The position numbers were made by a program, and so were the translations under genes. A stretch of DNA of 49,654 nucleotides from Candidatus Cloacimonadota bacterium (GTDB taxonomy: Bacteria > Cloacimonadota > Cloacimonadia > Cloacimonadales > TCS61): the NCBI GenBank assembly GCA_030620155.1, contig JAUXFF010000003.1:1-49654 (forward strand). Direction: 5' to 3'. Positions 10,534 to 49,654 of the stretch are shown here, piece by piece. The notes under the pieces were generated by a model. That model searched no databases. It saw only the letters and a list, made by a program, of their open reading frames with translations, and was not told where the DNA came from. Each line of letters starts with the position of its first letter. Within the stretch, counting starts at the first letter, position 1.

Positions 10534-10541
10534 ATTTTCTC

Positions 10542-11206: not shown

Positions 11207-11240
11207 CAGATCAACTCAATGGTTAATATTTACATAGTAA

Positions 11241-22604: not shown

Positions 22605-22655
22605 ATGCAAATTTTGGCTTTTTTAAATTTTTTCTATATAAACAGAACTTTATCT

Positions 22656-22727
22656 CTCGTTCCCACGACAGCCACAACGCTATGCACAACGCCATGTGGC
22701 ATCGCGTGGAGCCCCTGCTTGGGAATG
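22656..22727. repeat. REP-like palindrome with a nested insert
   Basis: ctcgttccca ... tgggaatg outer arms, inner gccaca/tgtggc stem and a tandem cacaacgc(t/c)atg. Confidence 0.55.
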
Positions 22728-22796
22728 TTCAATATGTTTTAAAATAAATAATTGAGAATTTAATAATTTCTCCACTTCTTTTTATTTATATAGAAA

Positions 22797-23169
22797 GCTC
22801 CTCTGGAGCAACAGTCTGAATCCTGAAGGGGTGCCCACACCACCCTTAAAGGGTGCAATAATATAACCCGATATGTTAACATCGGAATTGACATACATAT
22901 CATCACCCACACCACCCTGAAAGGGTGCAATAATATAACCCGTATGTAAATGTCGGGATTAGGAGCAAACAAAATCCCAACCACGAAGTGGTGAAATAAT
23001 TTAACCCGATGTGTCAACATTGGAATTGACATACATATCATCACCCGCTCAATCCTGGAAGGATTGAATATTAATAGCCGCAGTAGAAACCTTTGGATAA
23101 AAATAACATATCGAATACAACCCTGAATGGGTTGAAAAAAACCAACATGAGCTCAAGCTCCAGAGGAGC
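22797..23169. repeat. Tandem array of ~70-72-bp double-hairpin units bounded by a 13-bp inverted repeat
   Basis: Units start near 22834, 22906, 22977, 23045 and 23117 (caccctgaaagggtg-caataatataacccg...); gctcctctggagc at 22797 and its exact reverse complement at 23157. Confidence 0.8.
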
Positions 23170-23210
23170 GTTCCATCAACCCATAACAGCATATTAAGGG
23201 GGTTCTTCTT

Positions 23211-23378
23211 AATTCGTGAAATCCGTGTTCTATAAAAATAAAATATTAAAAAATCCTTAATAATCCGTCTAATCCGTGTCATCCGCCTGCCAAGCCGTAT
23301 CCGGCAGGTGCCGGAGAAGGCTGGTGTTCTATATTCCCTCTCTTGAAAGTTTGCTGAATATTTAAACAGATGGTGAGT
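23211..23378. repeat. Dispersed repeat (atccgtg motifs plus a tgttctat...ttgaaag...ttaaacag tail) homologous to 19960..20090
   Basis: tgttctatattccctctcttgaaagtttgctgaatatttaaacag versus tgttctattataccttccttgaaagcttgccgaatacttaaacag. Confidence 0.7.
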
Positions 23379-23629
23379 TCAAAATTTCCTGAGGAAATAT
23401 AAATTTTTAAAATGTAAAAACACCAATTTTTTTTTTTAGTAAAAGAAATTGTAGGAACAAGCAGATACTTAATCTTTCCGGCTCAAAATAAAAAGATGAA
23501 AATATACAAATATTTCTTGACGATTGTTTTTGTATTCAACAATTTTGTTATTTGTTGGATATTGTATATGTTATGGAAACACATAACTTATTGTTTTTTA
23601 TAGAATTAAAAAAACAAACAGGAGTGTCT

Positions 23630-23698
23630 ATGGGTAGTTTTTATTATGTTTTTCGTTATTTTAATCAGTTATTTTTCCTTAACAAATCGAAATTTTAA
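23630..23698 (+). CDS. Possible 22-aa leader ORF upstream of the giant gene
   Basis: AGGAG-tgtct-ATG, MGSFYYVFRYFNQLFFLNKSKF-stop. Confidence 0.3.
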   Translation: MGSFYYVFRYFNQLFFLNKSKF

Positions 23699-23796
23699 AC
23701 TTTTTATGTGAAATCTTTTAATCGAAATTGATGAATTTACGAATTTTTTTAAGAAATTAATAAAAAAAATTAGAAAATGTTAAAAAGGAGTGTTTT

Positions 23797-26700
23797 ATGA
23801 AAAACAGAATGTTATTTTTAGTAACGTTTTTGATGGTTTTATTCTCTGTTAATTTACTTTTCGCAGAAAGAGACATTACCGGAAGTACAATTACTTCATC
23901 TATTACTACTTATACTCCCGGCGCCTCTCCAACATTCGATTTTTATTTAGATGTTGTTGATCCTATGTTTACAGATGCAGTTACAGATGTATCTGTTAAT
24001 TTCCCACCCGGAGTTCAGGTTCTACCTACTGGAGAAGTTCCTTTGGTTCTAGATCCTTGGGATTTTATTGGTGCTTATGGTCCACCATTTGCATTGGATT
24101 TCACCGGGCAATTCGGATGGGGAGTTAATTTAACATGGTCTTCTTCTGTTGCTGGTTTTTTTCCTATACCTGAGTATGGTATTCCTGTACCTCCAGGTGA
24201 TGCTTCCTGTTTACCTGGAATACCGGTTTTTATTAGTCCAACTTTTACCGGGGCTTTAGTTATAGATTGGACAATAACCTCTATAGGAACAGGTGGCGGA
24301 TCCAACTATGAGACAGGTCAGATTGTTATTGGACCTCCTTATGGTTTAGATGAGATTAATATTATTGGAACAGGTGGTGCTCCTACAGGTAATGATAATG
24401 GTTTTGGTCCCACCTATATTATTGATGACTGCTTTGATATCGAGGTTATTACAATTGGTGAGGCAGATTCCATGTTCATTGACATTTCTGAATTTGGCGG
24501 ACCTGCCGCTCTACAACTTGTTAAAGATCCTTCTGACAGCCTTCGCTGGACTGGAAGCTACTGCATAGAAGATTGTACATTACCGGCGGTACCTTGTGTC
24601 GATGACAATTCTGCTACAGCGTATGCAACCGGATGGTGGCCGGGTCCCATATCAGCTAATCAAGCTGATGATAATTCCTACCCGGTTGATAATCAACCAC
24701 CATCTGTATCAGACTGGGGGTCTTTCACTGTTACAGACAGACAAACACCTCCGGACAGTAATGGTATTGCCGATTTTAACTTCGGTGATGGCATAGGTCC
24801 TGATAATGATGAAGTAACTTATAATCCCGGTGCTGAAGGTACAGGTGACGGAATTGTCTGGTTCGTCGAAGTCGGCACAGAGTTTGCCGGAGATTTTGAT
24901 TCCTCAGTTCTTCTTACACAACCAACTCTTGAAGGTACATTGAACTGGCTTTACTGGGATCCTACTATCGAGGTTTCTGATAATGCCGGTAACACTGTTT
25001 ACGGAAATGCTGTGAATCCCGATAGTCTGGCTTATCTCGATAATGATCCTCCTAACGATCCTGACACAACGTATTTCGAAGTAAATCCAACTCGAGCTAT
25101 TCAGTATGCAGGTATCGGAGATGTTATCCGTGCTGTAGTTGATATGACAAGCTTACAACCAATTGCCAGCGGGATGTTCGATTTCTCCGCTCTTGATCCT
25201 GGTCCTCCCCCGGATGCAAACTATCAGATTCCAGGAATTATCGACGGCAACCTGATCTATGCAGATTATGAAGTTCAATCTGGTGATAATGAAATATTAA
25301 CACCTCCTGGTTTGATCGTATATGCCACACTTATTGATAGTGCAAGCAACTTCTCGGATCCTCCTATTGAAATTGGGGGAACCACCGGAGACTCACTCTT
25401 CGTTGATGGTACTGCCCCAATTGTTATTTTTGATATCGAAAATACAGGCTACCTTCGTTTCTCTCCGGATACTGATACTACCTTGGCAGATTATACAGAC
25501 TTAACCAATATACCGGATACTCTATTGATGTCTATTATGCTGGAAGACTGGGGTGAGATTGGTGGACCTGATGAATTCGTTATCAGGATCGAGCAGGAAT
25601 ATCTTACCAGAGATGAACCCAATCCCCATGCTTATAAAACATATCACATCGGAGATGAAGATGTCTGGTATGAAGAAACAGAAGGACCGAGAGGATGGTA
25701 CATGGTATACTTCTGGTGGGATGGCGTTATTCCTGTAGGTTCCACTTTTGGAACTCCAGGTGAACTGGCTCCCGAAGGAATTTATGGCTTCACTCTGTGG
25801 AGTGTTACTGACGGTGCCGGCAACGAGGGTGTTCTAGAGCATGTTGTAGAACATGATCCCTGGCCCTGGACACCTGGCGAGACACAATTAAACAGAATTC
25901 ATGGTGTTATTGACAATACTCCGCCTGAATACCTTCAGGAATTAGATGTTTATGGAGTTGCTACAGATGCTCATGTAGACACCATATATAGATATATTAA
26001 TGATGTTGATTATAGTGGCACTGTTAATGCAGGTGATATATTAATGGGTGTAGATCAAGTTTACTTCCAGTTTGGTGTTACCAGAGACTTCACCGAAAAC
26101 ACAGAAGCTCTGCGCCGCGAAAATGTAACTTACTGGATAGAAGTTGCGGGACCTGATACTATGCGTATCTTCTGGGGTGATGAAGATGGTAATGCATATC
26201 CTCCAGACCCATCCACTCAGGGTGTAGATCCTGGAACTTTTGTTGAGTATGATACTGAAGATGCCGTTTTATTTGGTACTATTCTTGATGTAAACGCAAT
26301 GGTTGGTCTTGGAAAAGATATCAAATGGATTGCTGATGATACCGGTGGTATGGACGACCTGTTATTCAAAGCAGGTACATATAATGTTACTTCAATGATT
26401 CGAGATAATGCAGGTAATATCAGAGACGGTTTACCAACCAGGGCTACAGTCGAACTTGTAGACATATTGTATACAGCTCCTACTTTAAACAGACTGGAAA
26501 TTGTTTCCTTCCATGATGACGGCTTACCACCTTATGATGCTAATGGTCATCATAACTTCTATCTCGATTCATCTTACGACACTTTACGTGTAGATTATTA
26601 TTATGATACAGATGATCTCATTACTGTTGAACTTGAGCTAGCAGATATTACTTATCTTGATTCAGTAGTAGTTGAGAACTTCTGGCCTTACTGGAATAAA

Positions 26701-29700
26701 TACTTTAACCAGGTCGAGCTTCCCACATATTTCCCGGGTGATTTTGTAGGTAATGTACTTACATTTTCTTATGATGCCAGCGAAATAGATGAAACCTTTG
26801 CCTGGGATTCTCTATATATTGTTGGTGATGTTCCACCTACTACTCCTGGTCTCGCTCTGAATGTCGAGATCTATGATACTATATTTGGACTGATGCCAGG
26901 TACTGCTTTGGCTGATTCATTCAACCTGATAAGACCCGAACAACCTGTATGGCCGGATTCTTCCTCTGTAACTCTTACTCTGTCTGATGACAGAATCTCT
27001 CCGGGATGGTGGTCACATTCTTATGATGCAGAAGACAATCCCGCCAGGGATCTTGAGCAGGATGACGTTGATATAGATATAGTATTCGACTTTAATGGCG
27101 AAGCTCTAACCGTTGATTTCGACTGGTTCCTCGCCATCGATACAGAACCTATTGACGACCCGATGAGGATGGCTTTCTCAGCCGCCAGATTCTCCAGAAC
27201 GGATTCTCTGGCTGCGGGAGATTCACTGTATACGATTCCAACAATTACATTCTACGGGTTGCAGAATAATATTACCTTACCTCCATTAGTGGATGAACAC
27301 TCAACTGAGGAATTATTTGTATCCGCTTATGCAATAGCTCAGGGTTATACCGATGGCGGTTATGTGGATCCTCCGGGAATGGGTGAGACAATTGTTGTCG
27401 AACCTCTTTGGATTGATAATACTAATCCCGGATTATTACAGAGAAATGGAGATCCACTTGTTAGCTGGGAAGGTGATGATAATTACTGGGGACACCTGTA
27501 TCCAACAGATGAAGATATGGCTGTTTCCTGGCAGACTACTAGTCTGACCATTGAATTCGAATCTGATGAACCGCTCCCGGATTCTCTCTGGCGTTTAGCT
27601 GTGGTTGATCTTGATGGTGATCCGATTGATCTTGGTTCAGGAAATCTTACAGCTACAATAGATAATGTAGCTGGAAGTGAAGAAGATACCATAGATGGTA
27701 TCACAGGATATACTCACTTCGTTATTGATTGTACTATTAATAATGTTCCTCAATACTCTCAATTCCTGGATGCTGTCCTGGTTGTTGTAGCTCCTGATGA
27801 TGAAGCAGGTAACCCGGAACATGAAAACGATCCACCTTATCCATATTCACTGGATCCGTTTGCAGCCGGTGATGCTTACCGCTGGGATTCATCTGAAGCC
27901 TATGTAAGATTTATGGTTCTTGAGGAAGAACCTTACATCCAGAGAATGGAATACTGGCATGAAAATACTTATGGAAAAATAGAATTAAACGGTATTGTAA
28001 CAGACTGGGGTTACATCAGTGAAGATGGTACATTTGATTTGACTATCCAACTTCGTGATGTGGCTTACCTTCCAATTGAGATAATAAGAGATATCTCCTC
28101 AGTTATTGATGTTGATTTCTCTCAGTTGGGTACTACTGCAGTAGCTCATGAAAATGACGCAATTATCGATACCACAGGTACTCCTTACGAATACAATATA
28201 ATCTGGGATGATATTCCCTTTGATGGTATTGATCTAATGACCAGGTATGCCGAGGGTGATACAATCTATATTCCTGCCCTTTTAAGCCTTGACTTTACAA
28301 CACCTGATGAAGGGCATGTTTACGAAGATTATCTTGAATTACCTATCATTGTGGATATCGTTAATCCAGCAGTTACAATACTTGATCCAACTTATATAGG
28401 ACCATATACTTCCAGAAATGACTTACTGGAAGGCTCCGAATACCTTGTACAGGTAGAAGTAATTGATGACGGTTCCGGTATCTGGGAACCAAGAGATACT
28501 CTTTATGTAATTAATGATGAAGGCGCTGGTATAATTGTTCAACGTGCTGGTGCTCCGCCACCAAGTGATTTACCATATCTGGAAGATTTTGAATCAGCGA
28601 GAGGTTGGTCAGATTGGACAGTTGCAGAAACTCCACCTAATGGTGACACATGGACACATACAACATCCCTGCCATCTGCCTGTGATTATGGCAGTGCAAC
28701 AGGATGGTTTGCAGCTTTTGATGATGATGGTTATGGATCTTCAAGTGATAATCCACTTGAGGAGTTAATCTCACCAGTAATTAACTGTACCGGTGAAACC
28801 GGTGTCACACTTGACTTCGATGGTGATTTCGAAGATATGGCGGGATATGGTCAATTTTGGGTACATGTAACCACCAATGGAAGCACATGGTATCAGGTAT
28901 TTTACGAAACTGGTGACGTTGATCCTGGTGGATTTGATAATCATCCAGGATTACCTATTGATATTTCAGCTTATGCTGATAATGAAGCTGCTGTCCAGAT
29001 AAAGTTCACCTATAGTGATGAAGATCCGGGATATGGTTCAGGCTGGGCATGGGGATGTTTGGTCGATAATGTGTCTTTAACAGCAACTGCCCGTGAAACA
29101 GCAATCTACGACTGGTCGGTTTTCGTTCCTGAAAATTATACCGATAGAATGGTAGACTTTGTAGCAGAAGCTTATGACAACGTTAATCATCTCGGAACAG
29201 ACATCAAGAACTGGGATATTGGATTTGTACCGCAACTAGCCATTTTGGACCTTTTTAATGCTGATTATCCTTATGGTGATGTTCCTATCCCAGCACCATG
29301 GCGTCTGAAAGATGGTGATGCTGCAGCGCTTATTATTGGTGTTGTAGATTTAGAAAGAATTGATACTGTTAGAGTGAAACTGAATACTAACTTTGAATAT
29401 GGTGCACGTTATACTTATGCTGCAGATGAATGGCTTATTTTAGACCATGACGCTTTCGCTTCATTACCAGATTGGGAAGGAGGCGGTAGAGGTAGAGTAG
29501 ATCAAACGCCTGTTTTTAAATATCTGGAACTGGGCAATGTTAATAATAATCCTCATGTTTTAAATGATGGTGAGGGAATAGTAGCCACAGTTGGAATCCA
29601 TCACCAATATTATGAGGAACTGGATTATCAGGAGGTTTCAACTCCTGTTGATTGCAATGCCTGGTTAGTAATTGATAATCTTGCTCCTACTATAACAGAT

Positions 29701-41700: not shown

Positions 41701-44700
41701 GAAAACTGGGATAAGATATATGCTGTTTCCAGAGACTGTCAGGATAGGCCTACAGAGGAAGTACACTTCCAGTTCTATGTTGGTGAAGAGTGGATAACAT
41801 TTGCTATTGCTCAGGCTCCAATGGGAGGCGAATCAGAAAATGGTATGGATCTGTGGATGGTTGAATTCAATGCTGATAATATGATCACAACAACACTTCG
41901 TGCAATTGCATATTATAATAACGCTTTGGATGAATTAACTGAATCCAGTATTAAACCTGAATTAGCAGTTCAATACTTATATACACCTGAACAAGGTGGT
42001 ATATTCGATCTTGCTGAAGGAACTACAAATGAAGATGTACATTTCTTCTACAGAGATTTAGTAAGAGCTACTATCCAGCAGGGTGAAAGAGTACCGTTCT
42101 TCTTTGGTATGAATGAAGTTAATGATAATAATGAACAATCTACAGAAGTAGAATTGTTTACTCCACATCAATTAGCTGATGATGAATTAACATTTGAAGC
42201 ATTAACTTGTGAAACTAACCTGTTGAATTTCATGGATGATGAATTCGGTAATGTATTAACATTGTGGTCTGCTTCAGTTGATCCTATGAATGGTTATAGT
42301 ATCAATCTGAACAGAGCTATAATTGATGTACATCCGATCACTGGACAGGGCAGTTTTGGTACTATGACTTCTGAAGACGGTGTAATGGATATAACTGTAC
42401 CCGCTAATGGCGGTGGCTCAGGTTGGATTTACTTCGAACCAGTGCTTGAAGAAGATGAAATCACCTATGATTGGGATATGATTCCAATCGCACGTCAGGA
42501 AGTTGTTCGTGGTGATATAGGACAAGCTCATGCAGAAAGTGACTTCAACATGTACTTCGTAGAGGGCTTCAGAGATATTGATCCTGATGCTCCGGTATAT
42601 ATGATCTGGTCACATGGACAAGGTGGCGGTGGTTATCGTGACACATGGGAATTCGAATGGGATGAAATACTCGAAGCTGAATTTATCTTTGAAGGTGAAA
42701 CTCCTATAGGTGCAAGTTGGTCATGGGATCTGGAAAAAGGATTTTATACCCTTATTCAACTGGTAGATCCTGGTTATGAAGTTGAATTTGTAGCAGTTGA
42801 TAATCAATATACTGATCCGATGGATCTTATGTGGTCATCATTTGCTCCAACAGGTTATGGACTTGCAGGATGGCTGCAAGAAATGATATTACCTGGTTGG
42901 GATGATCTTGATTTCTACTTCCGAACCTTTATGTTCTATAATTCTGAAACAGGTGAATATGAAGTTGATGATGATGTTGATATCGATGTTTACCTGGATG
43001 ACATTAGAATAGTTAATGATAATGAAGCTGATCCTACCTGGGTTGGTCATGATCTGGATGTTGACCCTGTATCAGGTATGTTTGAAATCGAACTGCTGGA
43101 TGATAATGAGGAATATTTCTTCGATGATCCCCCAGGAGAAGTTCATACAATAACAGTCTTTATATATCAGAACGGATTCGAAACAGCAACAGTAAGTCAG
43201 GAATTTGCTATTGATCATACTCCTCCTCATGTTGATAATCTGACAGGTGGTGGATATATCAGACATAATGTAACTCTGGCTGTTGATATTACTGATCCTG
43301 AAACACAAATCAACTCAGAATCTATCCAGGTAGCACTGATTAATCCTGAAGTTATTGAACTTGAACTGTTCATACCTATTATCATTGATGTTGGAAGTAT
43401 GGATATAACAGAAATTGAAAATGGTTATCATTGTGAATATACTATTACATTGGATGACCTTGGTATGATCATGAACCAAGGGTTCGAACCCTGGAATGAT
43501 GATGTGAATGAAGTTATGGTTGTCTGGTCGGCAATGGATAATGTCGAAATATATAACTGGATGGATCTTGGATTCAATCCCGCAATATATATTGTTGACG
43601 TTGCTCCTCCACAGGTATGGGCAATTTCACCTATCGGACCTCCAATCGATAATGATGGTGACGGTCTGTTTAATGAAGACCCGATCAACGGAATCAATGA
43701 AGACCAAGACTTCGATGATTGGAATAATAATGGTGTACAAGACGGTGAGTGGGTTATTGATGATACATTAGGTTGTTGGACTTGGGTAGGTGAACCACCA
43801 ATCGTTGATGAAGATCCATTCGATTATGGTCCAGACACCTTATTATACGGAACTGAGATAGTTGTAGCTATAGGTTATGAAGATATTCCTGGTGCTACCG
43901 TTGTAGATCCATGGTATACATGGTGGTCAGGTGCATGTGGTGTTGATACTGAAAACATACTTGTAACCCTGAACGGTGAAATTCTTCCGAATGAAGATGC
44001 TATCATCACCGAAGGTGTATGGCAATACGGATTCAATAGAGATCTCCTGACACCTGGACATTACGTAGTAATTGCAAGTGTACCTGATATGGTCGGTAAT
44101 GTCGGTAGTGTTAACTGGGAGTTCGAAGTACTTGGAGCAGCTCCGACAGTATCGTTTATTGAACCGGAAGCTGGCTGGTGGTTAACAACACATACAGATA
44201 ATACTCTCGAATTTACTGTAGAAACTCTGGAAGGATGCCCGGTTGCATTCGATGGTGTTGTAGCATATGTATGGCAAGAACCTAGCAATATAATCATTCA
44301 AGGACCTATGACAATCTCTCCGGATCCTTATGGTGTATACTCAGTGATAATAAATACTGGTATTGTGGGTGAAGATGAAACTGCAGTTGCATTACAAGTA
44401 TTCGCCGCTACAATTTGGGGTGATGAATCAGAAAGCTGGCAGTCCTACGGAATTGATAATACTGATCCTACTATCGAAATCGTTTCTCCGGAAGATGGTG
44501 AACACTTCGAATTGCATGAAGCTGTTCATATAATTGCTACTTATGATGATGTTCAATATGAACCGGAAAGAGATGGTAATTCTCCTGACGAGAATGCTCT
44601 TTCAATCAAAATAGGTGATATTTCTACCAGAGAAAATGGTTCGGGTATTGATTATGCTGAAGTTGTAATTACAGATCCTTTAGGTGGTATGGAAACCTAT

Positions 44701-47055
44701 ACCGGTGGTGATAACTATGTAGAACATGTGATCCTAGCAGGTGAATTGATCGCAGGTACTTATGTGGTTACAGTCAATGCTGAAGACATGGTGGGTAACG
44801 TGGGAGTTGAAACAATTGATTTCATAGTTGATTGTCCTGCACCTACTGTTCAATTCATTGAACCGGAAGCTGGTTGGTGGTTAACAACATACATAGATAA
44901 TACTCTTGAATTTACTGTAGAGACCCATGAACAGGGTCCGCTTGCATTCGATGGTGTTGTTGCTTATGTATGGCAAGAACCTATCCATGTTGTGGTTCAA
45001 GGACCTATGACACTTTCTCCGGATGAATATGGTGTATATTCTGTACACATAAATGCCGGTGTTATAGGAGCAGATGAGACTTTTGCAGTACTGCAAGTAT
45101 TTGCAACCACAATCTGGGATGATACTTCAGAATCTAATCAGGCTTATGCTATAGATAATGCAGATCCTACAATTGAATTCCTATCACCTGATGATGAAGA
45201 GATCTTCGGTTTGAATGAAGCTGTACATATCCTTGCAACTTATGAAGATGTTCAATCTGAACCTCAAAGAGATGACGCTACAATTAATATAGGAGATAGT
45301 TCTACCAGAGATAATGGTAGTGGTATTGATCATGCTGAACTTATAATTATAGATCCTACAGGAGCTTCGGAAACCTATGCGGGTGGTGATGGCTTTGTAG
45401 AACATGATATTCTAGCCGGTGAATTGATCGCAGGTACTTATGTACTTACAGTCAATGCTACAGATATGGTAGGTAACATAGGAGTTGCATCAATTGAATT
45501 CTATGTTGATGCTCCGTCACCTACAGTAACCTTCCATCCATTCAATGGTAGCTGGTGGTTCAATCCTGCATATAACACAGTACCATTTACCTTTGAAGTT
45601 CATTCTACCGGTGAAGTTCCAATTGCTGAAGACGGAGTTGTAGTTACATTCTATGGTGTTGTACCTGGTGAAGATATTATCTTACAAGGTCCACAAACAT
45701 TAGTATATTCAGAAAGTGGATTATATGAAATATGCCTGGGTGCAAATGTACCATCAAGTTGTACGGGTATAATCCTTGGAGTTGAAGTAACTAATGTTTA
45801 CGGCGTGTCTGTAGAATGCTTCCAGACTTATGGAATTGATGATGAAGCTCCGATTATTACCTTCGTTAGCCCGGAATACGGTGAATACTTCAGCTTAGAA
45901 GCTATTGTCAATGTTCTGGCAACCTTCACTGATACACAGGAAGGTGGTAGAGCTTCAGTTAGAACCTATGGTTCAGGAATACTTTCAGCCAACTTGAAGG
46001 TTGAAGATCCTCTGGGCAATATCGTTGTTGAAGTAGATGAAGGTGAAGATGTACAGCAAATTGGAGCTGCGGTTGCAGATCTGGTTATTGGAACATATAC
46101 AGTTACTGTAACTGTTACGGATAAGGCTTATAATACAGCTATTGCAACACTTCCATTCTACGTTAATGCTGATGCTGTAGGAATTACATTCAATGAACTC
46201 GGACCTGCAGGATGGTGGTATGGACCTCAAATGAATGTTCCATTTACATTCAACATTGTGGGAGATATTGCACAAAACGGTGTAATTGTGAACTTCTACG
46301 GAGCTCCGGATGCAGTCCTGATACAAGGTCCTCAGAGTGTATATGGTTCCCAAGGGTATTATTCTGTCTGGTTAGCTGCTGATGTTGGAGATTATACTGC
46401 TGTAATCCTGGAAGTTGAAGCTACAAATATTTCTGGTCAGGTGACCTATGGTAGCCAGACTTATGGAGTAGATTTGCTAGCTCCTGCTATTACAATCGAA
46501 TCTCCATCTGACGGTGATAAATTCACTGCTGCTGATCTGGTTGATATCCGGGCTTACTATACAGATGGCCAATCCGGAGTGAACACTTATTTACTTAAAG
46601 TAGATGGTGTGATAATTCCCGATTCCATTATGACATCCGTAAGCGAAAGCGGTCTGTTGTACTCAAGCACATATGCATTAGGTGAACATACTATCCAATT
46701 GATTGTAACAGACTTTGTTATGAATATCAATTCGGTAACCTGGTGCTTCTTTGTTTTGGATAAAGACCTTGAACTTACTTTTGAAGATGTTCATGTTTAT
46801 CCTAACCCAATGGATACTGAAGCTGGAGCAACATTCGTAATAGATGTTTCCAAGACAGCAGATATCGAGATTAAGATTTATGACTTTGCAGGAAAAGAAG
46901 TATGTACTCTCACGGGAAGTGACAGAAGTGTAATTACCTGGGATGGGTGTACAAACAAGGGAACTAAACTTGGTCGTGGTGCATACTTTGCTAGAGTTTC
47001 TGCAAATGACGGTAAATCGATCGTTGAAAAGATAATCAAGATAGCGATAAAATAA
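23797..47055 (+). CDS. Giant 7752-aa secreted acidic surface protein with many Ig-like repeats, an adhesin/MAM-like domain and a T9SS/FlgD-type C-terminal domain
   Basis: Uninterrupted 23.3-kb ORF with AAGGAG RBS and signal peptide (LFA-ERD); dozens of D.(A/V)GN ... (V/I)D...P Ig-like repeats; terminal VYPNPM...IKIYDFAGKEV...WDG...GAYFARV...KIAIK. Confidence 0.93.
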   Translation: MKNRMLFLVTFLMVLFSVNLLFAERDITGSTITSSITTYTPGASPTFDFYLDVVDPMFTDAVTDVSVNFPPGVQVLPTGEVPLVLDPWDFIGAYGPPFALDFTGQFGWGVNLTWSSSVAGFFPIPEYGIPVPPGDASCLPGIPVFISPTFTGALVIDWTITSIGTGGGSNYETGQIVIGPPYGLDEINIIGTGGAPTGNDNGFGPTYIIDDCFDIEVITIGEADSMFIDISEFGGPAALQLVKDPSDSLRWTGSYCIEDCTLPAVPCVDDNSATAYATGWWPGPISANQADDNSYPVDNQPPSVSDWGSFTVTDRQTPPDSNGIADFNFGDGIGPDNDEVTYNPGAEGTGDGIVWFVEVGTEFAGDFDSSVLLTQPTLEGTLNWLYWDPTIEVSDNAGNTVYGNAVNPDSLAYLDNDPPNDPDTTYFEVNPTRAIQYAGIGDVIRAVVDMTSLQPIASGMFDFSALDPGPPPDANYQIPGIIDGNLIYADYEVQSGDNEILTPPGLIVYATLIDSASNFSDPPIEIGGTTGDSLFVDGTAPIVIFDIENTGYLRFSPDTDTTLADYTDLTNIPDTLLMSIMLEDWGEIGGPDEFVIRIEQEYLTRDEPNPHAYKTYHIGDEDVWYEETEGPRGWYMVYFWWDGVIPVGSTFGTPGELAPEGIYGFTLWSVTDGAGNEGVLEHVVEHDPWPWTPGETQLNRIHGVIDNTPPEYLQELDVYGVATDAHVDTIYRYINDVDYSGTVNAGDILMGVDQVYFQFGVTRDFTENTEALRRENVTYWIEVAGPDTMRIFWGDEDGNAYPPDPSTQGVDPGTFVEYDTEDAVLFGTILDVNAMVGLGKDIKWIADDTGGMDDLLFKAGTYNVTSMIRDNAGNIRDGLPTRATVELVDILYTAPTLNRLEIVSFHDDGLPPYDANGHHNFYLDSSYDTLRVDYYYDTDDLITVELELADITYLDSVVVENFWPYWNKYFNQVELPTYFPGDFVGNVLTFSYDASEIDETFAWDSLYIVGDVPPTTPGLALNVEIYDTIFGLMPGTALADSFNLIRPEQPVWPDSSSVTLTLSDDRISPGWWSHSYDAEDNPARDLEQDDVDIDIVFDFNGEALTVDFDWFLAIDTEPIDDPMRMAFSAARFSRTDSLAAGDSLYTIPTITFYGLQNNITLPPLVDEHSTEELFVSAYAIAQGYTDGGYVDPPGMGETIVVEPLWIDNTNPGLLQRNGDPLVSWEGDDNYWGHLYPTDEDMAVSWQTTSLTIEFESDEPLPDSLWRLAVVDLDGDPIDLGSGNLTATIDNVAGSEEDTIDGITGYTHFVIDCTINNVPQYSQFLDAVLVVVAPDDEAGNPEHENDPPYPYSLDPFAAGDAYRWDSSEAYVRFMVLEEEPYIQRMEYWHENTYGKIELNGIVTDWGYISEDGTFDLTIQLRDVAYLPIEIIRDISSVIDVDFSQLGTTAVAHENDAIIDTTGTPYEYNIIWDDIPFDGIDLMTRYAEGDTIYIPALLSLDFTTPDEGHVYEDYLELPIIVDIVNPAVTILDPTYIGPYTSRNDLLEGSEYLVQVEVIDDGSGIWEPRDTLYVINDEGAGIIVQRAGAPPPSDLPYLEDFESARGWSDWTVAETPPNGDTWTHTTSLPSACDYGSATGWFAAFDDDGYGSSSDNPLEELISPVINCTGETGVTLDFDGDFEDMAGYGQFWVHVTTNGSTWYQVFYETGDVDPGGFDNHPGLPIDISAYADNEAAVQIKFTYSDEDPGYGSGWAWGCLVDNVSLTATARETAIYDWSVFVPENYTDRMVDFVAEAYDNVNHLGTDIKNWDIGFVPQLAILDLFNADYPYGDVPIPAPWRLKDGDAAALIIGVVDLERIDTVRVKLNTNFEYGARYTYAADEWLILDHDAFASLPDWEGGGRGRVDQTPVFKYLELGNVNNNPHVLNDGEGIVATVGIHHQYYEELDYQEVSTPVDCNAWLVIDNLAPTITDITYTIEDARHEADVTITAIVLDPILGSCPYDGAGVDIGSLNLDLTGLNGDPDVGCSTYNPGTGLAEWNLWWDEDFDSNPLDIDGLLMGDPIDGWITIHAEDYIDNASSADAQIDTQPVVEDVRFYVNDIESDVMFPDDMGIVRVEVDVTAEEFHMAYQLQDRVHLVYTDNIGGTFDSGPPFDFTVYRDRATMLYTYVFYPVFEDLNDLEIGFSVADFDVFAISIYNYRSETYDKDMIIIDYPREDLHGIVESTREQGVYDGNDPTGWFAPEHNIHGELTFFTPTELNTDIVIANFDYVGDFVDPWLNPDEVITDLITPVVLNGGTPHEITINMYTQRAIWEEVITDAQSIWSLYIPPSLQYPGETAMQVIDGYHIPIEIIAYMFGYEMLLPTKYIQVDMNDPAYSMADGWGFYTEEMPRRVDPETDVFDLTLSWFPDTILEPFDWGDTDWDAATMTYTIEIPYEYLPFSDPLVLTTYATDWTPTDEYPSIGGVDPLRIDEPTSAAFVIIPYADDEFGYYDNGASPLPDDSLYYANWLLTPLVRQGFEHGDSVTIQLGQVWDQVAHNEGAAPEITFRFVADYDGVDTDELLIYRYVETEPKNATVAPYVMAGGKFGLQIPVDPYMRDTSILTVEAFTAMLENFVTSTEEADAVLGYWWVGLSTDTLDVGLWWLDQQFSNKVVHPDYTDGTELYTKIRITYNNGSVQETGWITARTENYAIVDGVDPVIHEYGIEVWSETLGYDGEEGYVVPEDIDGRLRITFDDNIMYYEEAPEGYPEVPSILVTGLEDIFFYRIEDGVITPVNDYLIPAQYFDAQRGVWVAEIDSMVVRTDLPEDEETQETIWVSLWDPAGNAYYGNPASKFVEITEDGPIVPVIYGMEVIAGDGLVPWQAFDNINNISGTYFSIAEGENTEITINVYVRAKYKAYIEEMWLDLSTLSGDVHTTIPPFDIVSVSDPDSNLWRGTYVMESPLLTRSEEVIISANTLRWPFGAHDVFTDIFEVTLFVDTNDIEIIDTMVSTMGVDWTINPDGTVEIWATFTDLLGDYPDSLHWLPGDLYPWFSVENGADNFFTPVDIVIPPTNITLVGDNAECYWNIPPAMLHEDLQTDAENTWVSINFNARNIYNETYTWGSDPILVDDQAPGFNEAGSYTYGEYHLDNRTIVPFYTDGLRLGPVWDEYAYLHLVYTDVSGVLEIITDWSHFGGSSSYPVYPMRAQEEFEFLYDAQIYWQWPPVSMNGNVVISITDNVGNVNDDNNNVNTTFVFEENVTFGTYIYPNDDFMQVGPWWYTDQEPTIEMYMEHIVMGFDLIDNNADVWVDEVGEGLLFDPLTLHVNNHVDDEWYPFPHDLTVVNDTTVITLEGAFGFFSEGNYRIQLNTDNIFGHHLTNYVNFNVDLTAPMVTGIQFGSSGSGWTPPVFDMNDVIISYSDWDQIRIRFEDPAIIGTMMPPPPMPGVGVLKDTLFAETTAALYREGVLITEIVPLQWNVNWLTIGIEDLRWAGDNLLPGYYELEMTATDLLGNTANYTKSFFYNHQAAEITLHVFDNNYVELTGGEILHLSDEIAYLGATVDDEFGMVIRVDFELWFDENNNNILDPDDVQYSDIEGDVPVDNHLTSTPDFDVPFECTWHQLDLEWLYVNGGEDAVNDHMDAYNYRHDEGDFNTAIRDWFVVTTATSNSGQTARDTTAVPIIDDVGPAPTIDHLTLDHHTGQDSYIDTEGVHHFFYNYDYDNYIENTSMIYSVCQYDSDGDEEVDHNWPDAWYINYEIYGPDGSLKYTIYDSYMQIPTDYYIGYWDWGYDALTDPGRYDIYAWGYDRIGNQAYSLNHMEVDVFTVGNAWAYLDMWNFDVPGWDLINPIADGSEFGPINPIENILNLRLDATIYHMHEVQYVGFFYNVYDNSDGVPVMIESGLPLPNDSAINPDFGEWADLIYPQEMELWTIAEGDSGRVRIVIPEDLYRGPGFDENDYTYEFYMMITDYTGVPFMHTGHVDDMTEGFRVDYVAPESFMADVADVLSGDLIDDITVVVPEEGNAADEWAEGYDLAGFDHVPTFKWSYDGMRTWNYFETNYPNVWPYDPAEQVFEDGNTRQYWYDDWNSYILDQLAVYNYEGWVYVTAEVQDRRGNWTDATPTQVYVDNQSPDVPITQVAYRLPLDVEVPDPLAYAQWHTLGTFMYEEDNTITAAYNVVNGVGQTEDAFLRMRVHQSEILDLSYYDIPPGESSDLQMPITVYHATGEQLSSWHLYDHEPDPQGYYSFDILLAEENDFWPGTHYFAFVAWDTRNNLEGDEDHSYDIDYDEFMDMWDLQVILVHGQPVETAIIFPDSSFIIGEWVNFGAEYYLRSEVNEMTFQYSETGHSDEWTDIETVEFSEEEAPYFFHIFRHELWQYDGLPFVPGVHVFYEEVGERCEGLLYEYNQFEDDYIGELTWNGADAWTGTFDFPLWDRDYTEYDVVFVADLNDDGVITELDYDVPFIGDNVWPNFWHPNDKLNGTTVEIAPWMLAFNTMDDRLATGLYYFRAVPDGDPRAAMSTSFFIDNDAPIAVIDIEGNDEEVPVFDVWDGNELSLVPLVTDIDGLLVADDDLVIVFYMYSSEAPGTEFRHWYDFDWSMEMAGDYFVEFNVPDPMTDNLDNDGDGFVDEADEANAIMYLRSFGMDVAGNYGFSQEVMIEADNSCAYMHITTINGQVPVGPSWIVDIPEDGIMELEANDITPEIYDGAVFADFYIVEEVDEVDVLHEIELGVPVDEFGYAYATLDMNNFGFDEGYYLLYVVGVDRVDHACEPNVITPVIFNDVTGPSAIITSVGAYDPADLLGVVFTNYAETYVIEVTVADTNDVGTVTLEYSTDDTIWHNVDTQVYDDSDPVVTFNWSPPVEGDATYYLRALPEDWQANDSYIPVTVHIDDTVPVLAADPIITTIVDITIWDDTIVPVLDYRADSVRTMLEYAVDEYHGLFDIASVDVDLVPIVFTRTSHYDLGDNSYVVTGVTGDNFEYDMNDDDAISDEYELVITLTDFAGNTDTLSYYYIVIDNDAPGFIPGSLEHITEMYQTEWYDVSDGEVVQFVLPMGEEGGTRALNWWDDGVQDDNSYFLGIETVEMRLYADDMEDFVEGVIDENYDIWFDWIPDALAEYLYHDIDIDITMTDYYNNSTTQTCNSIQLYDTEVSKARILEVDDNMVDWQAEEYPDVWVTGHDALIETYVPASVDYADNVIFEWFDPELEDWVELDVDGSGVLVPQPPYEYPTSYLYECNWDISELDNGDYLIRAIAIDMAGLWDDDPWVVLVHKDDNQDYPEVYVWDGDVAATELVRGSYYNLTATSEYPEVIDGLSFLYRYVDEEGEVVGDTWFDIGFDADSEVPYYLNDWLIHNTMVPGLEVQIIALADYLGNRYYQPTEQDIFDMGLFVQLPLVDITPPDILDVTFYEFIRDYEEEAIPMWINNSITEMVDLVRSNIAAEYYELGDRDYIEDMSDLHRIILSYTDLELEEHVLEVVWFDDEAEANPYEYNYTNYENGWDISEFENGEYGITLEAWDTADNTSQLSIPFYIDTMAPTSALEITDLGGAPVDYLERGETYLLTANAEDNMMIASYAYVYTVDGGAAIAIDGDAEQVEFTVPEGINYGAELEFTVTVTDMVNLTHESSVTKLVFDSDITEIIITTVGGVPYVPGLHINGEAVGFDILLLGNEEPDLITDVALKYRYVGDVEWELCDEDNPVLIVTGGNNDEAYGTWDVSELDEGDVEVGAVPVSDPENIWEEPLYWATMYIDHTPPELGIPDYVIPSCISDGFMIRVEFAELPADLDHTLVRFEYVIADQADIPEAWTTWTIPPFFGYDSGFWFFEFNPGEEDCPFINSEVYDFRLHIADVAVPDPNTTKVDEIEEVDGGTLFDDEAPIVFVSQIDEYVAPFAEPVEVVLSTSPTFTALAFEHPEQYPFVCGVESVEFYIDGELIDVVFEEPYMTNAWNTTGLMVGPYTLSVTACDFAGNCAEDEVELMLVPYMEPYAVIVGFDFDFEVENWDKIYAVSRDCQDRPTEEVHFQFYVGEEWITFAIAQAPMGGESENGMDLWMVEFNADNMITTTLRAIAYYNNALDELTESSIKPELAVQYLYTPEQGGIFDLAEGTTNEDVHFFYRDLVRATIQQGERVPFFFGMNEVNDNNEQSTEVELFTPHQLADDELTFEALTCETNLLNFMDDEFGNVLTLWSASVDPMNGYSINLNRAIIDVHPITGQGSFGTMTSEDGVMDITVPANGGGSGWIYFEPVLEEDEITYDWDMIPIARQEVVRGDIGQAHAESDFNMYFVEGFRDIDPDAPVYMIWSHGQGGGGYRDTWEFEWDEILEAEFIFEGETPIGASWSWDLEKGFYTLIQLVDPGYEVEFVAVDNQYTDPMDLMWSSFAPTGYGLAGWLQEMILPGWDDLDFYFRTFMFYNSETGEYEVDDDVDIDVYLDDIRIVNDNEADPTWVGHDLDVDPVSGMFEIELLDDNEEYFFDDPPGEVHTITVFIYQNGFETATVSQEFAIDHTPPHVDNLTGGGYIRHNVTLAVDITDPETQINSESIQVALINPEVIELELFIPIIIDVGSMDITEIENGYHCEYTITLDDLGMIMNQGFEPWNDDVNEVMVVWSAMDNVEIYNWMDLGFNPAIYIVDVAPPQVWAISPIGPPIDNDGDGLFNEDPINGINEDQDFDDWNNNGVQDGEWVIDDTLGCWTWVGEPPIVDEDPFDYGPDTLLYGTEIVVAIGYEDIPGATVVDPWYTWWSGACGVDTENILVTLNGEILPNEDAIITEGVWQYGFNRDLLTPGHYVVIASVPDMVGNVGSVNWEFEVLGAAPTVSFIEPEAGWWLTTHTDNTLEFTVETLEGCPVAFDGVVAYVWQEPSNIIIQGPMTISPDPYGVYSVIINTGIVGEDETAVALQVFAATIWGDESESWQSYGIDNTDPTIEIVSPEDGEHFELHEAVHIIATYDDVQYEPERDGNSPDENALSIKIGDISTRENGSGIDYAEVVITDPLGGMETYTGGDNYVEHVILAGELIAGTYVVTVNAEDMVGNVGVETIDFIVDCPAPTVQFIEPEAGWWLTTYIDNTLEFTVETHEQGPLAFDGVVAYVWQEPIHVVVQGPMTLSPDEYGVYSVHINAGVIGADETFAVLQVFATTIWDDTSESNQAYAIDNADPTIEFLSPDDEEIFGLNEAVHILATYEDVQSEPQRDDATINIGDSSTRDNGSGIDHAELIIIDPTGASETYAGGDGFVEHDILAGELIAGTYVLTVNATDMVGNIGVASIEFYVDAPSPTVTFHPFNGSWWFNPAYNTVPFTFEVHSTGEVPIAEDGVVVTFYGVVPGEDIILQGPQTLVYSESGLYEICLGANVPSSCTGIILGVEVTNVYGVSVECFQTYGIDDEAPIITFVSPEYGEYFSLEAIVNVLATFTDTQEGGRASVRTYGSGILSANLKVEDPLGNIVVEVDEGEDVQQIGAAVADLVIGTYTVTVTVTDKAYNTAIATLPFYVNADAVGITFNELGPAGWWYGPQMNVPFTFNIVGDIAQNGVIVNFYGAPDAVLIQGPQSVYGSQGYYSVWLAADVGDYTAVILEVEATNISGQVTYGSQTYGVDLLAPAITIESPSDGDKFTAADLVDIRAYYTDGQSGVNTYLLKVDGVIIPDSIMTSVSESGLLYSSTYALGEHTIQLIVTDFVMNINSVTWCFFVLDKDLELTFEDVHVYPNPMDTEAGATFVIDVSKTADIEIKIYDFAGKEVCTLTGSDRSVITWDGCTNKGTKLGRGAYFARVSANDGKSIVEKIIKIAIK

Positions 47056-47062
47056 ATTAATT

Positions 47063-47090
47063 CTGGGAAGGGGTTAATCCCCCTTCCCGG
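47063..47090 (+). terminator. GC-rich hairpin after the giant gene (no U tail; weak terminator or mRNA stabiliser)
   Basis: gggaagggg-ttaatc-ccccttccc. Confidence 0.55.
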
Positions 47091-47110
47091 ATCAAATTAT
47101 GGAGGAAAAA

Positions 47111-48061
47111 ATGAATAAAAAACTACTAGTTACATTGATTACCTTGATCCTGATAGGCATGTTTTCAACGGTCGCTGCTGAGAATAATCACCTTTTTCCT
47201 TGGATTAGGATGGGATTAGGTGCAAAAGCAATGGCTATGGGTGGAACAGGAACTGCATTTATGGACAATATTACAGCTACTTATTGGAATCCTGCTGCTC
47301 TTGCTAATGTAAAAAGAGCAGAATTTGCTACAATGTATACTGATATGGGATTGGACAGGATGCAAAATTATGCCGCCTTAGGAACAAGTTTTAAGTATGG
47401 ATATGTAGCCTTGAGCTGGATTAATGCCAGCGTTGTTGATTTTGAGGAGTATAGTGGAGTTGATGATTATGTAGGAGACTTTGACTACAATGCTCACAAT
47501 ATTGGCTTAAGTCTGGCTTTAGGTCCTGGTAAGTTCAAATTCGGTTTAACAGCGAAGATGTATATGGATAAAATGGCTGAGGATACTGAAAATGGATTTG
47601 GCTCTGATTTGGGAATATTATGGAACATCAATGAGTATTTAAGCATTGCTGGAATGATCAGGGATATTTATTCAGAAATGGATAAAGAAGAAGTTCCTCA
47701 TCAAGCCGTTCTTGGTCTCGCTGTACATCCGATTTACGGTCTTACTTTTGCTACAGATCTTAAAACCGTAAAACATTCAGATGAGTGGACTGTTCATATT
47801 GGAGCTGAATATTGGACAGGAATTGGGAGAGATACGGAGATTGGATCCAGTCATTCAGGTATAACTCTTGAAGAGAAGACCAAATGGGATGAAATAATTT
47901 CTAATACTCAAGCTGGAATTAGATTAGGTGTAAATAATGGTGATTTTACAGCTGGATGTGGAATCAGATTTAAGATGCTCGGATTGAACTATGCCTATAT
48001 ATCAGAATCAACACCAGGATTTGACGACTCCCATCAATTCACACTCATTTTAAAATTTTAA
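47111..48061 (+). CDS. PorV/PorQ-family outer-membrane beta-barrel
   Basis: GLGAKAMAMGG...ATYWNPAALA, alternating beta-strands, C-terminal HQFTLILKF; GGAGG RBS before the ATG at 47111. Confidence 0.88.
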   Translation: MNKKLLVTLITLILIGMFSTVAAENNHLFPWIRMGLGAKAMAMGGTGTAFMDNITATYWNPAALANVKRAEFATMYTDMGLDRMQNYAALGTSFKYGYVALSWINASVVDFEEYSGVDDYVGDFDYNAHNIGLSLALGPGKFKFGLTAKMYMDKMAEDTENGFGSDLGILWNINEYLSIAGMIRDIYSEMDKEEVPHQAVLGLAVHPIYGLTFATDLKTVKHSDEWTVHIGAEYWTGIGRDTEIGSSHSGITLEEKTKWDEIISNTQAGIRLGVNNGDFTAGCGIRFKMLGLNYAYISESTPGFDDSHQFTLILKF

Positions 48062-48065
48062 GAAG

Positions 48066-48105
48066 AATTTAGAAGGGAGGATTAAATTTCTCCCTTTAAA
48101 TTTTT
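48066..48105 (+). terminator. Hairpin with T run between the PorV-like and OmpA-like genes
   Basis: aatttagaagggag ... ctccctttaaatt followed by tttt. Confidence 0.55.
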
Positions 48106-48135
48106 CTGAGGGCGAAAAAAAATTAAGGAGACCCC

Positions 48136-49654
48136 ATGAACAAAAAATATAAACTTCTAATAATTTTGATAGTATTTGTCTCTATTTTTCTCTACAGTGA
48201 GAATGAAAGATTTTTAGTTGAAGCTAAAAAGTATTTTGTACAGGGTGATTATGATAAGGCAGAACAATGGATTAAACTGTCTATGGAAAAAAGAACAGTA
48301 TTACCCGAGGATCACTATTGGCTGGGGAAAACTTATATAGCACTTCAAAATTACGATCTAGCTTATGAACACATGAAAATCTATTCTGAGAAAAATTTGG
48401 GAGTTGATAAAGAAGAAATAGATACAATACTTGAAATTATAAGTAACCAGATTGAGATGACCAAAGCAGGGAATAATATTTATACACTGGGAAAGATCTA
48501 TGGCTATGTTAATAGCGAGTATTCTGATTTTGCCCCGATCATCTTTGATAATGGTAATAAGATGTATTTTACATCTGCAAGATTAGCTGAAAAAGGGAAA
48601 GATAATATCTGGATGGTTGAAAAAGTAGCAGGTGAGTGGGTGGATCCTGTGCTTATAAATAATCTTTCTACTAATAGAAATGAATCATTGGGTTCATTTT
48701 CAGAAGATGAAAGTGTTGGATATCTTTTCGCTAACTATCTATCAGATTCCAAAATGGGTGATATTTACATGAGTAGAAAACATGATAAAGGATGGGAAAA
48801 ACCAGGTCTTGTTTCCGGTGTTAATACTGAGAAAATCGAATTACAACCTTCTGTTTTCGAAGATAGAATAATGTTTTTTGTCAGTAATCGAGATGGAGGT
48901 TTTGGAGAATTAGACCTGTATGTTTCGGAAAAAGTCGGTGGCTCCTGGTCAAAACCTGAAAATCTTGGACCTGTAATTAATACCCAGGAATTCGAAGAAA
49001 CTCCTTTCCTCGAATGGGATGGTAAAACTTTGTATTTTGCGTCGAACGGTCATCCCGGTTTAGGTGGTTTTGATATTTTTAAGTCTGAGAAAATTGGTGA
49101 GACCTGGCAGGACTGGAGTAAACCTGAGAATCTTGGGTTAGTTATAAACTCCGTAAAAGATGAGCGTTATTTTTATCGTTCACCTCTTTCAAATATAGCA
49201 TATATCTCATCCAATCGTTTTATAGGACTGGGTCATGAGGATATTTACCGTGTAAATATTACACCACCTGAGATAATTGAGGAAGAACCCCCTGTTTTAG
49301 TAGAACCAGAAGAGGATATAGTTCTTGAGGATTTGCAGGTAGATGAAGTTATCGTAATCGATAATATATATTTCGAATTCGATAAAGCAATATTATTGGA
49401 AAAATCCTACCCTACCCTGGATTACCTGGTTGGAGAACTGCTCAAGAACCCCCATTTAACTGTTGAGATAAGCGGACATACTGACGGCATAGGTTCTAAT
49501 GAATATAATTTGAATCTATCACTTGAACGTGCTGTATCTGTTATTGACTATCTGATTGAAAAAGGTGTTCCAGCAGATAACCTTATCAGTAAAGGTTATG
49601 GTGAAGAAGATCCTATTGCTGATAATAGCACGGATGAAGGAAGATCACAAAATA
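48136..49654 (+). CDS. TPR-PD40-OmpA family protein (PorE-like); 3' truncated by the window and absent from the ORF track
   Basis: AAGGAG RBS, MNKKYKLLIILIVF signal, TPR-like helices, PD40 repeats (FVSNRDGGFGELDLY, PENLGPVINT, LYFASNGHPGLGGFDIF), OmpA domain NIYFEFDKA...ISGHTD...NLNLSLERA...GYGE. Confidence 0.92.
   Translation, partial: MNKKYKLLIILIVFVSIFLYSENERFLVEAKKYFVQGDYDKAEQWIKLSMEKRTVLPEDHYWLGKTYIALQNYDLAYEHMKIYSEKNLGVDKEEIDTILEIISNQIEMTKAGNNIYTLGKIYGYVNSEYSDFAPIIFDNGNKMYFTSARLAEKGKDNIWMVEKVAGEWVDPVLINNLSTNRNESLGSFSEDESVGYLFANYLSDSKMGDIYMSRKHDKGWEKPGLVSGVNTEKIELQPSVFEDRIMFFVSNRDGGFGELDLYVSEKVGGSWSKPENLGPVINTQEFEETPFLEWDGKTLYFASNGHPGLGGFDIFKSEKIGETWQDWSKPENLGLVINSVKDERYFYRSPLSNIAYISSNRFIGLGHEDIYRVNITPPEIIEEEPPVLVEPEEDIVLEDLQVDEVIVIDNIYFEFDKAILLEKSYPTLDYLVGELLKNPHLTVEISGHTDGIGSNEYNLNLSLERAVSVIDYLIEKGVPADNLISKGYGEEDPIADNSTDEGRSQN

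Follow-up and report, generated by a model that had tools for sequence, protein, structure and literature searches.

A gene for a 7752-residue secreted protein, a private PorV/PorQ-family barrel and a PorE-like gene suggest an accessory type IX-like export and anchoring module in Cloacimonadota

Several surface systems have been described in which a protein that the T9SS (type IX secretion system) exports is paired with an outer-membrane barrel of its own. In Porphyromonas gingivalis, PorE, PorP and PG1035 bring together a surface protein with a C-terminal sorting domain (CTD), a barrel, and a peptidoglycan-binding protein composed of TPR, beta-propeller and OmpA parts (PMC9143113), and in Flavobacterium johnsoniae the gene of the giant adhesin SprB adjoins the gene of its own barrel, SprF (PMC9143113, PMC12618676). 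Barrels of the PorP/SprF type are cognate shuttles for type B CTDs, and without them the cargo is neither secreted nor put in place; PorV, according to the same 2025 paper, recognises every type A CTD (PMC12618676), and the CTDs of PorZ and PorU stay unremoved on the PorQ and PorV barrels (PMC11285876). Here we consider a window of 49,654 nucleotides (the whole stretch of DNA analysed, which is the entire contig C112 of a 2.5 Mb metagenome bin of 243 contigs, 92.7% complete) from an uncultured Candidatus Cloacimonadota bacterium of marine sediment. It contains an open reading frame (ORF) with an ATG start for a giant secreted protein of 7752 amino acids (23797..47055, forward strand), followed 43 nt past its end by the gene of a 320-residue outer-membrane barrel of the PorV/PorQ family (47099..48061, forward strand) and, 74 nt past the barrel gene, by a PorE-like TPR-PD40-OmpA gene (48136..49653, forward strand; 506 aa), which is open at its 3' end because the window is the entire contig. 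This is the gene order given in a preliminary description made from the DNA letters, and it is confirmed. We propose that the three genes probably constitute a self-contained accessory T9SS-like module, by which one very long fibre is exported and attached to the cell.

The triad has the same three-part logic as PorE-PorP-PG1035, and the best PDB match of the OmpA domain encoded by its third gene is 6top (1.7e-17), which we take to be the C-terminal domain of PorE. It differs from that system in that the barrel is of the PorV/PorQ family instead of PorP, the CTD is type-A-like instead of type B, the cargo has 7752 residues, the phylum is another one, gldKLMN were not found, and the PorE-like protein has neither the lipoprotein cysteine nor a match to PorE positions 435-508. 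Compared with SprB-SprF, the giant cargo gene likewise lies beside a barrel gene; however, pairs of the SprB-SprF type use type B CTDs, PorP/SprF barrels and a GldLM-driven track, whereas in the triad a private PorV/PorQ-family barrel and a wall tether go with a type-A-like CTD subclass. With PorZ-PorQ and PorU-PorV the triad shares the barrel family, its barrel being nearer to PorQ (48.7 bits) than to PorV proper (23.3 bits), but the cargo is a structural giant, neither a sortase nor a lipopolysaccharide (LPS)-delivery protein, and the genes are adjacent and joined with an OmpA tether or fusion. With the carriage of type A CTDs by PorV, as seen in SprA-PorV-CTD (PMC10994853), the likeness is that barrel loops and a conserved lysine close to the end of the CTD take part in the predicted interface; the difference is that the housekeeping PorV (contig C123) is near-universal, whereas the giant's barrel forms a separate, patchy clade. 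What distinguishes the triad is thus the pairing of a private PorV/PorQ-family barrel with a CTD subclass that is type-A-like, the wall tether, separate or fused, its location outside Bacteroidota, and its occurrence in genomes without detectable gldKLMN. We found no prior description of the triad in the literature on Cloacimonadota secretion or on PorV paralogs, the supplements of which could list such genes; in the portion of one paper that concerns us, a CTD on a 3755-aa scaffoldin-like protein is mentioned and the triad is not (PMC8542988).

Conservation of the set was assessed among 41 relatives (35 of high quality) and in a phylum set of 158 genomes (151 of high quality). Thirteen of the 41 relatives, the window's genome among them, have a barrel ortholog (40-78% identity, E<=1e-57); the other barrel matches in this set are paralogs at E>=1e-19. 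In the phylum set the ortholog is present in 68 of 158 genomes (65 of the 151 high-quality ones), in single copy except for two copies in G093; by family it is found in 48 of 69 genomes of f4, in 8 of 10 of f12 and patchily in f1 (8 of 32), and it was not found in families f2, f7, f14 and f16 of this sample. The gene context was examined at 21 barrel-ortholog loci with enough flank (the window, ten and ten more), and at each of them the gene that ends immediately upstream of the barrel encodes a CTD protein. The complete ones measure 2559-7752 aa; a contig or fetch end truncates four others, and one, in G108 (C1), is split into two frames of 4068 aa and 1741 aa. At 17 of the loci the barrel is followed by a separate TPR-PD40-OmpA gene (520-911 aa), and at the other four it is fused to OmpA-like domains (three in G005, G017 and G023, one in G001), while the genes outside the triad vary between loci. 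The triad, or cargo plus barrel-OmpA fusion, is thus conserved at every one of these 21 loci. Apart from one 309-aa PD40-only ORF in G034, PorE-like TPR/PD40 sequences were seen among the 41 relatives in barrel-carrying genomes only. The fusions offer Rosetta-stone evidence that barrel and peptidoglycan binder act together, and they represent independent genomic support for a barrel-to-wall link such as that proposed for PorP-PorE.

SprA was found in all 35 high-quality relatives and a PorV-type barrel in 33 of the 35. Because these two are near-universal and the barrel ortholog is patchy, the three-gene module is an accessory unit outside the core T9SS. This bears directly on a different scenario, in which the barrel and the PorE-like protein would be the Cloacimonadota PorP/PorE serving all T9SS cargo, and the adjacency of the giant gene would merely reflect operon history. 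PorE is reported to be essential for gingipain secretion in P. gingivalis (PMC12773672), and the genome, in agreement with such a scenario, has no second PorE-like gene and no match to PorP (TIGR03519), for which the control genomes gave none either. Yet the pair was not found in 86 of the 151 high-quality phylum genomes, it is missing from relatives that do have SprA and the PorV-type barrel, it always accompanies a giant-type CTD gene at the 21 loci examined, and this genome encodes one giant-type CTD next to about 150 canonical ones. We consider it very unlikely that the pair is general machinery, and continue below with a module dedicated to the giant.

The giant's CTD (46795..47052, forward strand; ending ...GRGAYFARVSANDGKSIVEKIIKIAIK) matches TIGR04183, the T9SS type A sorting domain, at aa 7667-7748 with 34.7 bits and so passes the cut-off of 23; its Pfam scores, 26.4 bits for Por_Secre_tail and 23.0 for CHU_C, are both just under the cut-off of 27. 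The giants share the ending ...ARG.YFAR(V/I)...EK(I/V)VK(I/V)A(I/V)K, and 11 aligned sequences show 15 invariant columns; most other CTDs of the genome end ...SSGIYFYKLK...KKMLLLK. According to an iterated profile built in this analysis, 152 of 2615 ORFs of at least 90 aa carry a CTD-like tail, and in this generic profile the giant is placed 144th of the 152. A hidden Markov model of the giant-type CTD, made from 19 orthologous giant CTDs with the window's own excluded, reverses this: the window's giant scores 121.7 bits, and the next best of the genome's 149 tails 57.3. That the giant's CTD represents a special subclass, one per genome, is well supported by these sequence comparisons. At the other end of the protein, aa 1-23 (23797..23865, forward strand) resemble a Sec signal, MKNRMLFLVTFLMVLFSVNLLFA/ER, with the typical n-h-c pattern as judged by eye on the translation, and residues 2-21 form a helix in the AF2 model. 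The preliminary description had called the protein secreted on account of a signal peptide and a CTD; the CTD is backed by the family model, and the signal is a reading of the translation accompanied by the predicted helix.

The predicted partner of this CTD is the barrel encoded next to it. Co-folding of the mature barrel with the C-terminal 96 residues of the giant, based on alignments of 11 rows for each chain, gave ipSAE values of 0.89, 0.86 and 0.89 against 0.01 for the best control, where the mark applied is reached by 58 of 80 solved complexes and by 2 of 110 mismatched pairs. For the partner, pLDDT was 87 or higher, that of the barrel chain 84-85, and the runs shared at least 97% of their contacts. 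The contacts fall on the invariant CTD stretches YPNP, IYDFAGKEV, GRGAYFARV and the C-terminal IKIAIK, including K111; in the solved SprA-PorV-CTD complexes a conserved CTD lysine bonds to the PorV main chain (PMC10994853). Since PorV-CTD complexes have already been solved (PMC10994853; PDB 8gl6 and others), the co-fold indicates likeness and is no proof, and the CTD-barrel contact expected in the preliminary description is predicted with a score that this likeness may explain. In a maximum-likelihood tree 19 giant-linked barrels form a group (support 92/90) from which five paralogs of the window's genome are separate; the tree omits four rows (G001, G009, G014 and G006), and the placement of the paralogs in it is unsure because their branches are long.

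The family assignments of the barrel and of its neighbour each hold in part. The barrel aligns with NF033709, the PorV/PorQ family, over model positions 4-326 of 326, that is full length, at 70.6 bits, which is below the cut-off of 90. It scores 45.9 bits for PorV2, and by the scores given above it is a sub-threshold member nearer to PorQ than to PorV proper; the preliminary description had called it PorV-like. A profile of 11 barrel orthologs matches solved PorV (6h3i_F, E=6.2e-8) over the first 100 residues only, and the sequence terminates in F, like an outer-membrane beta-signal. The 11 loci with close relatives of the barrel are all from Candidatus Cloacimonadota or one of its genera; beyond this phylum the next matches are in Zixiibacteriota and Bacteroidota at 24-29% identity. 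The PorE-like protein, the proposed periplasmic tether, consists of TPR (aa 21-80), a PD40 beta-propeller (about aa 129-375) and, preceded by an acidic Pro/Glu linker, a peptidoglycan-binding domain of the OmpA type from aa 408 onward. Of the layout read in the preliminary description, OmpA (82 bits) and PD40 (64.2 bits) are above their cut-offs, TPR is sub-threshold, and the N-terminal signal region is free of cysteine and so without the lipoprotein cysteine of PorE. To PorE itself (NF052230) the score is 215.8 bits against a cut-off of 600, and altogether its likeness to PorE and CHU_0125 amounts to about one third of their cut-off scores. The match covers model positions 93-434 and 509-599; the unmatched positions 435-508 would correspond to the CRD. 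Judged by the 520-aa ortholog of G009 (64% identity), about 14 residues are missing from the ORF.

How might such a module work? After Sec export, the giant's CTD would pass at SprA to its own barrel and not to the housekeeping PorV, which is a separate gene with 238.9 bits to NF033709. The CTD would then remain on the barrel, as is the case by analogy in PorZ-PorQ, SprB-SprF and PG1035-PorP, resulting in non-covalent anchoring in the outer membrane, and the barrel would in turn be joined to the cell wall by the PorE-like protein or by the fused OmpA domains, so that a pull on the fibre would leave the anchor in the membrane. The exposed part would be a chain of about 70 Ig-like beta-sandwich domains, some hundreds of nanometres in length; this number comes from a domain size of about 105 aa in the modelled stretch, which gives a fibre of a few hundred nm. 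Such a fibre might be a filament, an adhesin or a coat, and its use would probably be attachment to particles or partner cells, or the formation of a loose coat. We consider non-covalent, wall-tethered anchoring to be the best reading by analogy, a variation on the PorP/PorE and PorQ/PorZ theme. The preliminary proposal of a cargo-dedicated export and anchoring module is supported by the 21 loci, the CTD subclass and the predicted complex.

Let us suppose instead that the barrel is a dedicated shuttle and nothing more: it would take the large cargo from SprA, PorU would cut off the CTD, and the giant would be released or linked to LPS, with the PorE-like protein steadying the loaded translocon and no permanent anchor being formed. 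The barrel-OmpA fusions of four genomes fix the barrel to the wall, which is easier to reconcile with a static anchor than with a mobile carrier. The CTD tail shows the high conservation between families that one expects of a lasting interface, and known CTD proteins paired with a barrel of their own (PorZ-PorQ, PorU-PorV, type B/PorP) retain their CTD (PMC11285876, PMC9143113). On the other hand, the giant's CTD does pass the type A model TIGR04183, in Bacteroidota PorV passes type A cargo on and most of it is cleaved (PMC11285876, PMC10994853), the genome has a PorU at 427 bits, over the cut-off of 420, and the co-fold is blind to the difference between transient and permanent binding. On balance we find release by cleavage unlikely, though by no means negligible.

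For the anchored fibre that we prefer, a number of points need to be held against it. The whole body of evidence is computational. The barrel and the PorE-like protein both score below the cut-offs of their families, the latter with its gene about 14 aa short at the contig end. The genome has no second gene like the PorE-like one, and in P. gingivalis PorE belongs to the T9SS in general; a wider role for its product is therefore possible. The co-fold may mirror the solved PorV-CTD complexes, and it is silent on specificity against the housekeeping PorV, while retention of the CTD is argued by analogy, with PorU cleavage as the alternative. The AF2 confidence for the giant is low to moderate, and its fold matches are to generic Ig-like arrays (see below). 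In addition, the barrel frame of G009 is broken by stops into two pieces of 99 and 167 aa (G009:C34), which, like the split giant of G108, may be due to decay or sequencing errors. If the anchored module is nevertheless correct, the rule of one cargo for one carrier barrel would be widened from type B CTDs with PorP to a type-A-like CTD with a PorV/PorQ-family barrel, outside Bacteroidota. The giant would also be the largest surface protein named for these widespread anaerobic bacteria of sediments and digesters, and a target for attachment studies.

The secretion background of the genome is T9SS-like. Besides PorU, it encodes SprA (a 2037-aa frame, 498 bits in total) and six full-length PorV-family barrels. 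From the list of sprA, porU and porKLMN suggested in the preliminary description, the first two are therefore present, and no GldK, GldL, GldM or GldN (PorKLMN) over cut-off was found in G000 or in three single-contig relatives (G026, G027, G111), where the Flavobacterium positive control gave 551.8, 209.7, 481.8 and 252.2 bits, respectively. The relatives gave only partial, sub-threshold GldK-like matches at model positions 218-406. In G026:C1 there are 55 partial matches to the C-terminal half of GldK, nine of them in one 3333-aa frame (e.g. 2908419-2917565), which by our reading represent an FGE-sulfatase-like domain. These findings invite the idea that the giant, of about 0.8 MDa, crosses the outer membrane via SprA without a GldKLMN motor, the tethered barrel being part of the export device: the fixed barrel would act as a dock, and the folding outside of some 70 acidic Ig-like domains, perhaps driven by cations, would pull the chain through. 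This is a speculation to which we give little credence, and we think it distinctly unlikely; if true, it would mean a T9SS-like system operating on a different energy principle. With gldKLMN undetected and about 150 CTD proteins to be exported, the power source of this T9SS-like export is in any case directly testable.

The giant's barrel is not the only one with a CTD protein at its side. Four further PorV-family barrels of the genome adjoin CTD proteins with atypical tails (contigs C123, C209, C29 and C191), the partners including an M6-like inactive metalloprotease: a PorV-type barrel precedes an M6-like protein, a PorQ-like barrel sits between M6-like and subtilisin-like CTD proteins, another barrel comes after an ExeM-like nuclease, and the fourth, PorV2-like, after a PorU2-like protein. 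From these gene neighbourhoods, cargo-barrel pairing looks like a general habit of the lineage. As a separate observation, the CTD secretome is poor in lysine and arginine, with medians of 1.97% K and 1.75% R over 144 CTD ORFs, compared to 8.93% and 3.55% in 1314 other ORFs of at least 200 aa, and the genome encodes C25 (gingipain-family) peptidases with a CTD. One idea would be self-protection from the cell's own Lys/Arg-specific proteases, another nitrogen economy in exported proteins.

A frame of 23 kb in a fragmented metagenome bin of 243 contigs calls for some caution, since it could be a chimera of several genes or strains, especially with repeats in the C-terminal part of the giant and with strain variants in other sequencing runs, some of which have indels of a length not divisible by three. 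No stop occurs along the 23,256 nt of the ORF, the genome having a GC of about 32%, and its GC at third codon positions (GC3) is on par with that of adjoining genes. Three DNA runs from three cold-seep sediment studies (Logan contigs), among which the source sample may be included, show depth in 30 of 30 bins of 29655-49654, and single Logan pieces bridge the junction from giant to barrel (44803-47724 and 46678-48111). Among the 12 indel variants listed for the runs (nine more are additional to these), seven are multiples of three, two are single-base changes 3 nt apart that compensate each other, and three are small insertions in one run (4 nt summed) that break the frame multiple. By word-indexed search and BLAST, 14 proteins of 5023-7098 aa from other assemblies are colinear with the giant over most of its length at 25-47% identity, and colinear giants occur in single-contig genomes too. 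We leave the chimera, which the preliminary description had named as a danger to its proposal, with next to no probability; this reading is essentially refuted, and the giant as a real, conserved and colinear gene family is well supported. An exhaustive HMMER search with aa 1-1200 against 1.84 billion representatives returned 17 relatives only, including giants of 7996 and 7380 aa. The small number of relatives, their colinearity and the confinement of repeats to one segment (see below) mean that the family is rare, lineage-restricted and kept domain by domain, and that it is no shuffling repeat protein. None of the runs listed as containing the stretch is registered as RNA. As a side observation, a metatranscriptome run from a cold-seep sample contains three short contigs on the giant gene (32151-32309, 37482-37521 and 42327-42660, with 0-1 mismatches), which by the search tool's own caveat are no demonstration of transcription.

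The giant has four times the length of the second-longest CTD protein in the genome (1928 aa), and its composition is extreme, acidic and lysine-poor: 18.5% D+E and 0.6% K, i.e. 50 lysines in 7752 residues. The giants of family f4 are milder, with about 2.2% K and 9-11% D+E. The strongly T/A-ending codons noted in the preliminary description are real (GC3 0.28) and nothing special, nine other genes of the window having values of 0.22-0.36. The overall GC of the gene, about 0.40 against about 0.32, is due to a GC of 0.56 at first codon positions, in other words to amino-acid composition; horizontal transfer as the source of this bump is ruled out, GC3 being the same as in the neighbours. A self-BLAST of the whole protein yields the diagonal alone, and repeats were therefore sought by windowed self-comparison. 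It detected self-similarity nowhere except at aa 6739-7665 (44011..46791, forward strand), where about four units of about 230 aa with 33-68% identity carry Ig-like Pfam families (Big_7 68.9 bits, Big_13 65 bits), so that the description of the domains as mostly non-identical is borne out.

The Ig-like nature of these domains is documented unevenly along the chain. Ig-type Pfam families (Big_7, Big_13, Big_3_3, PKD-like) occur from aa 5465 onward only, and aa 1-5100 have no match in Pfam and NCBIfam at E<=0.01 except one 17-bit repeat match; a relaxed Pfam search of aa 1-1200 was without match as well, and the best ESM Atlas value for aa 1-2000 was 0.78 (Reelin subrepeat-B, CARDB and Cleaved_Adhesin clusters), below the tool's informative level. 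The domain-wise structure prediction and Foldseek comparison proposed in the preliminary description was carried out for two segments. AF2 models of aa 1-1200 (mean pLDDT 52.6, 16 alignment rows, mostly fragments) and of aa 3340-4300 (mean pLDDT 64.1, 11 rows) are almost wholly beta, and in Foldseek both resemble chains of Ig, FN3 or macroglobulin (MG) domains, with E-values to 1e-12; targets were alpha-2-macroglobulins, mastigoneme, SiiE, PrgB, PirB, contactin, SbsB and the GhpA neck. The TM-scores are about 0.1-0.2, low because the domain arrangements differ. VIA-align finds single Ig-like domains at residues 180-300 and 505-706 with Z of about 7-8, a level which the tool calls common. With moderate confidence, then, the models suggest that the sampled parts are a string of beta-sandwich modules, and the Ig-like domains of the preliminary description are supported by Pfam toward the C-terminus and by the beta models of the two segments. 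As strings of beta-sandwiches the modelled segments match giant Ig-like surface fibres such as SiiE, the Ig-like domains of PrgB and the GhpA neck, but the giant has no sequence relationship to these; it is also almost repeat-free, its orthologs are colinear by domain, and its export route is T9SS-like. A lineage-specific insertion of about 210 aa (about aa 1564-1772; 28486..29112, forward strand), defined by a gap in the alignment to the closest homolog P0004, opens with a DFE...W motif. A relaxed Pfam search of aa 1551-1820 gave InhA-like_MAM only, at a non-significant E=0.088; a MAM/jelly-roll-like fold is possible, and the insertion could be an added binding module.

Upstream of the giant, a non-coding gap of 1.2 kb (22605-23796) separates it from an LptD-like gene (20130-22604, forward strand; LptD_2, 182.7 bits), which is not conserved beside the triad in other genomes. 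A promoter and terminator scan of 22500-23900 gave no signal, with 8 promoter-like sites against 6.9 expected. The lowest GC in the window lies at about 8000-14000 (0.285-0.294), with several small minus-strand ORFs at 8645-12948. A second T9SS cargo is encoded on the reverse strand at 7133-8626, a protein of 497 aa with a Por_Secre_tail of 46.1 bits and a weak BNR-like match.

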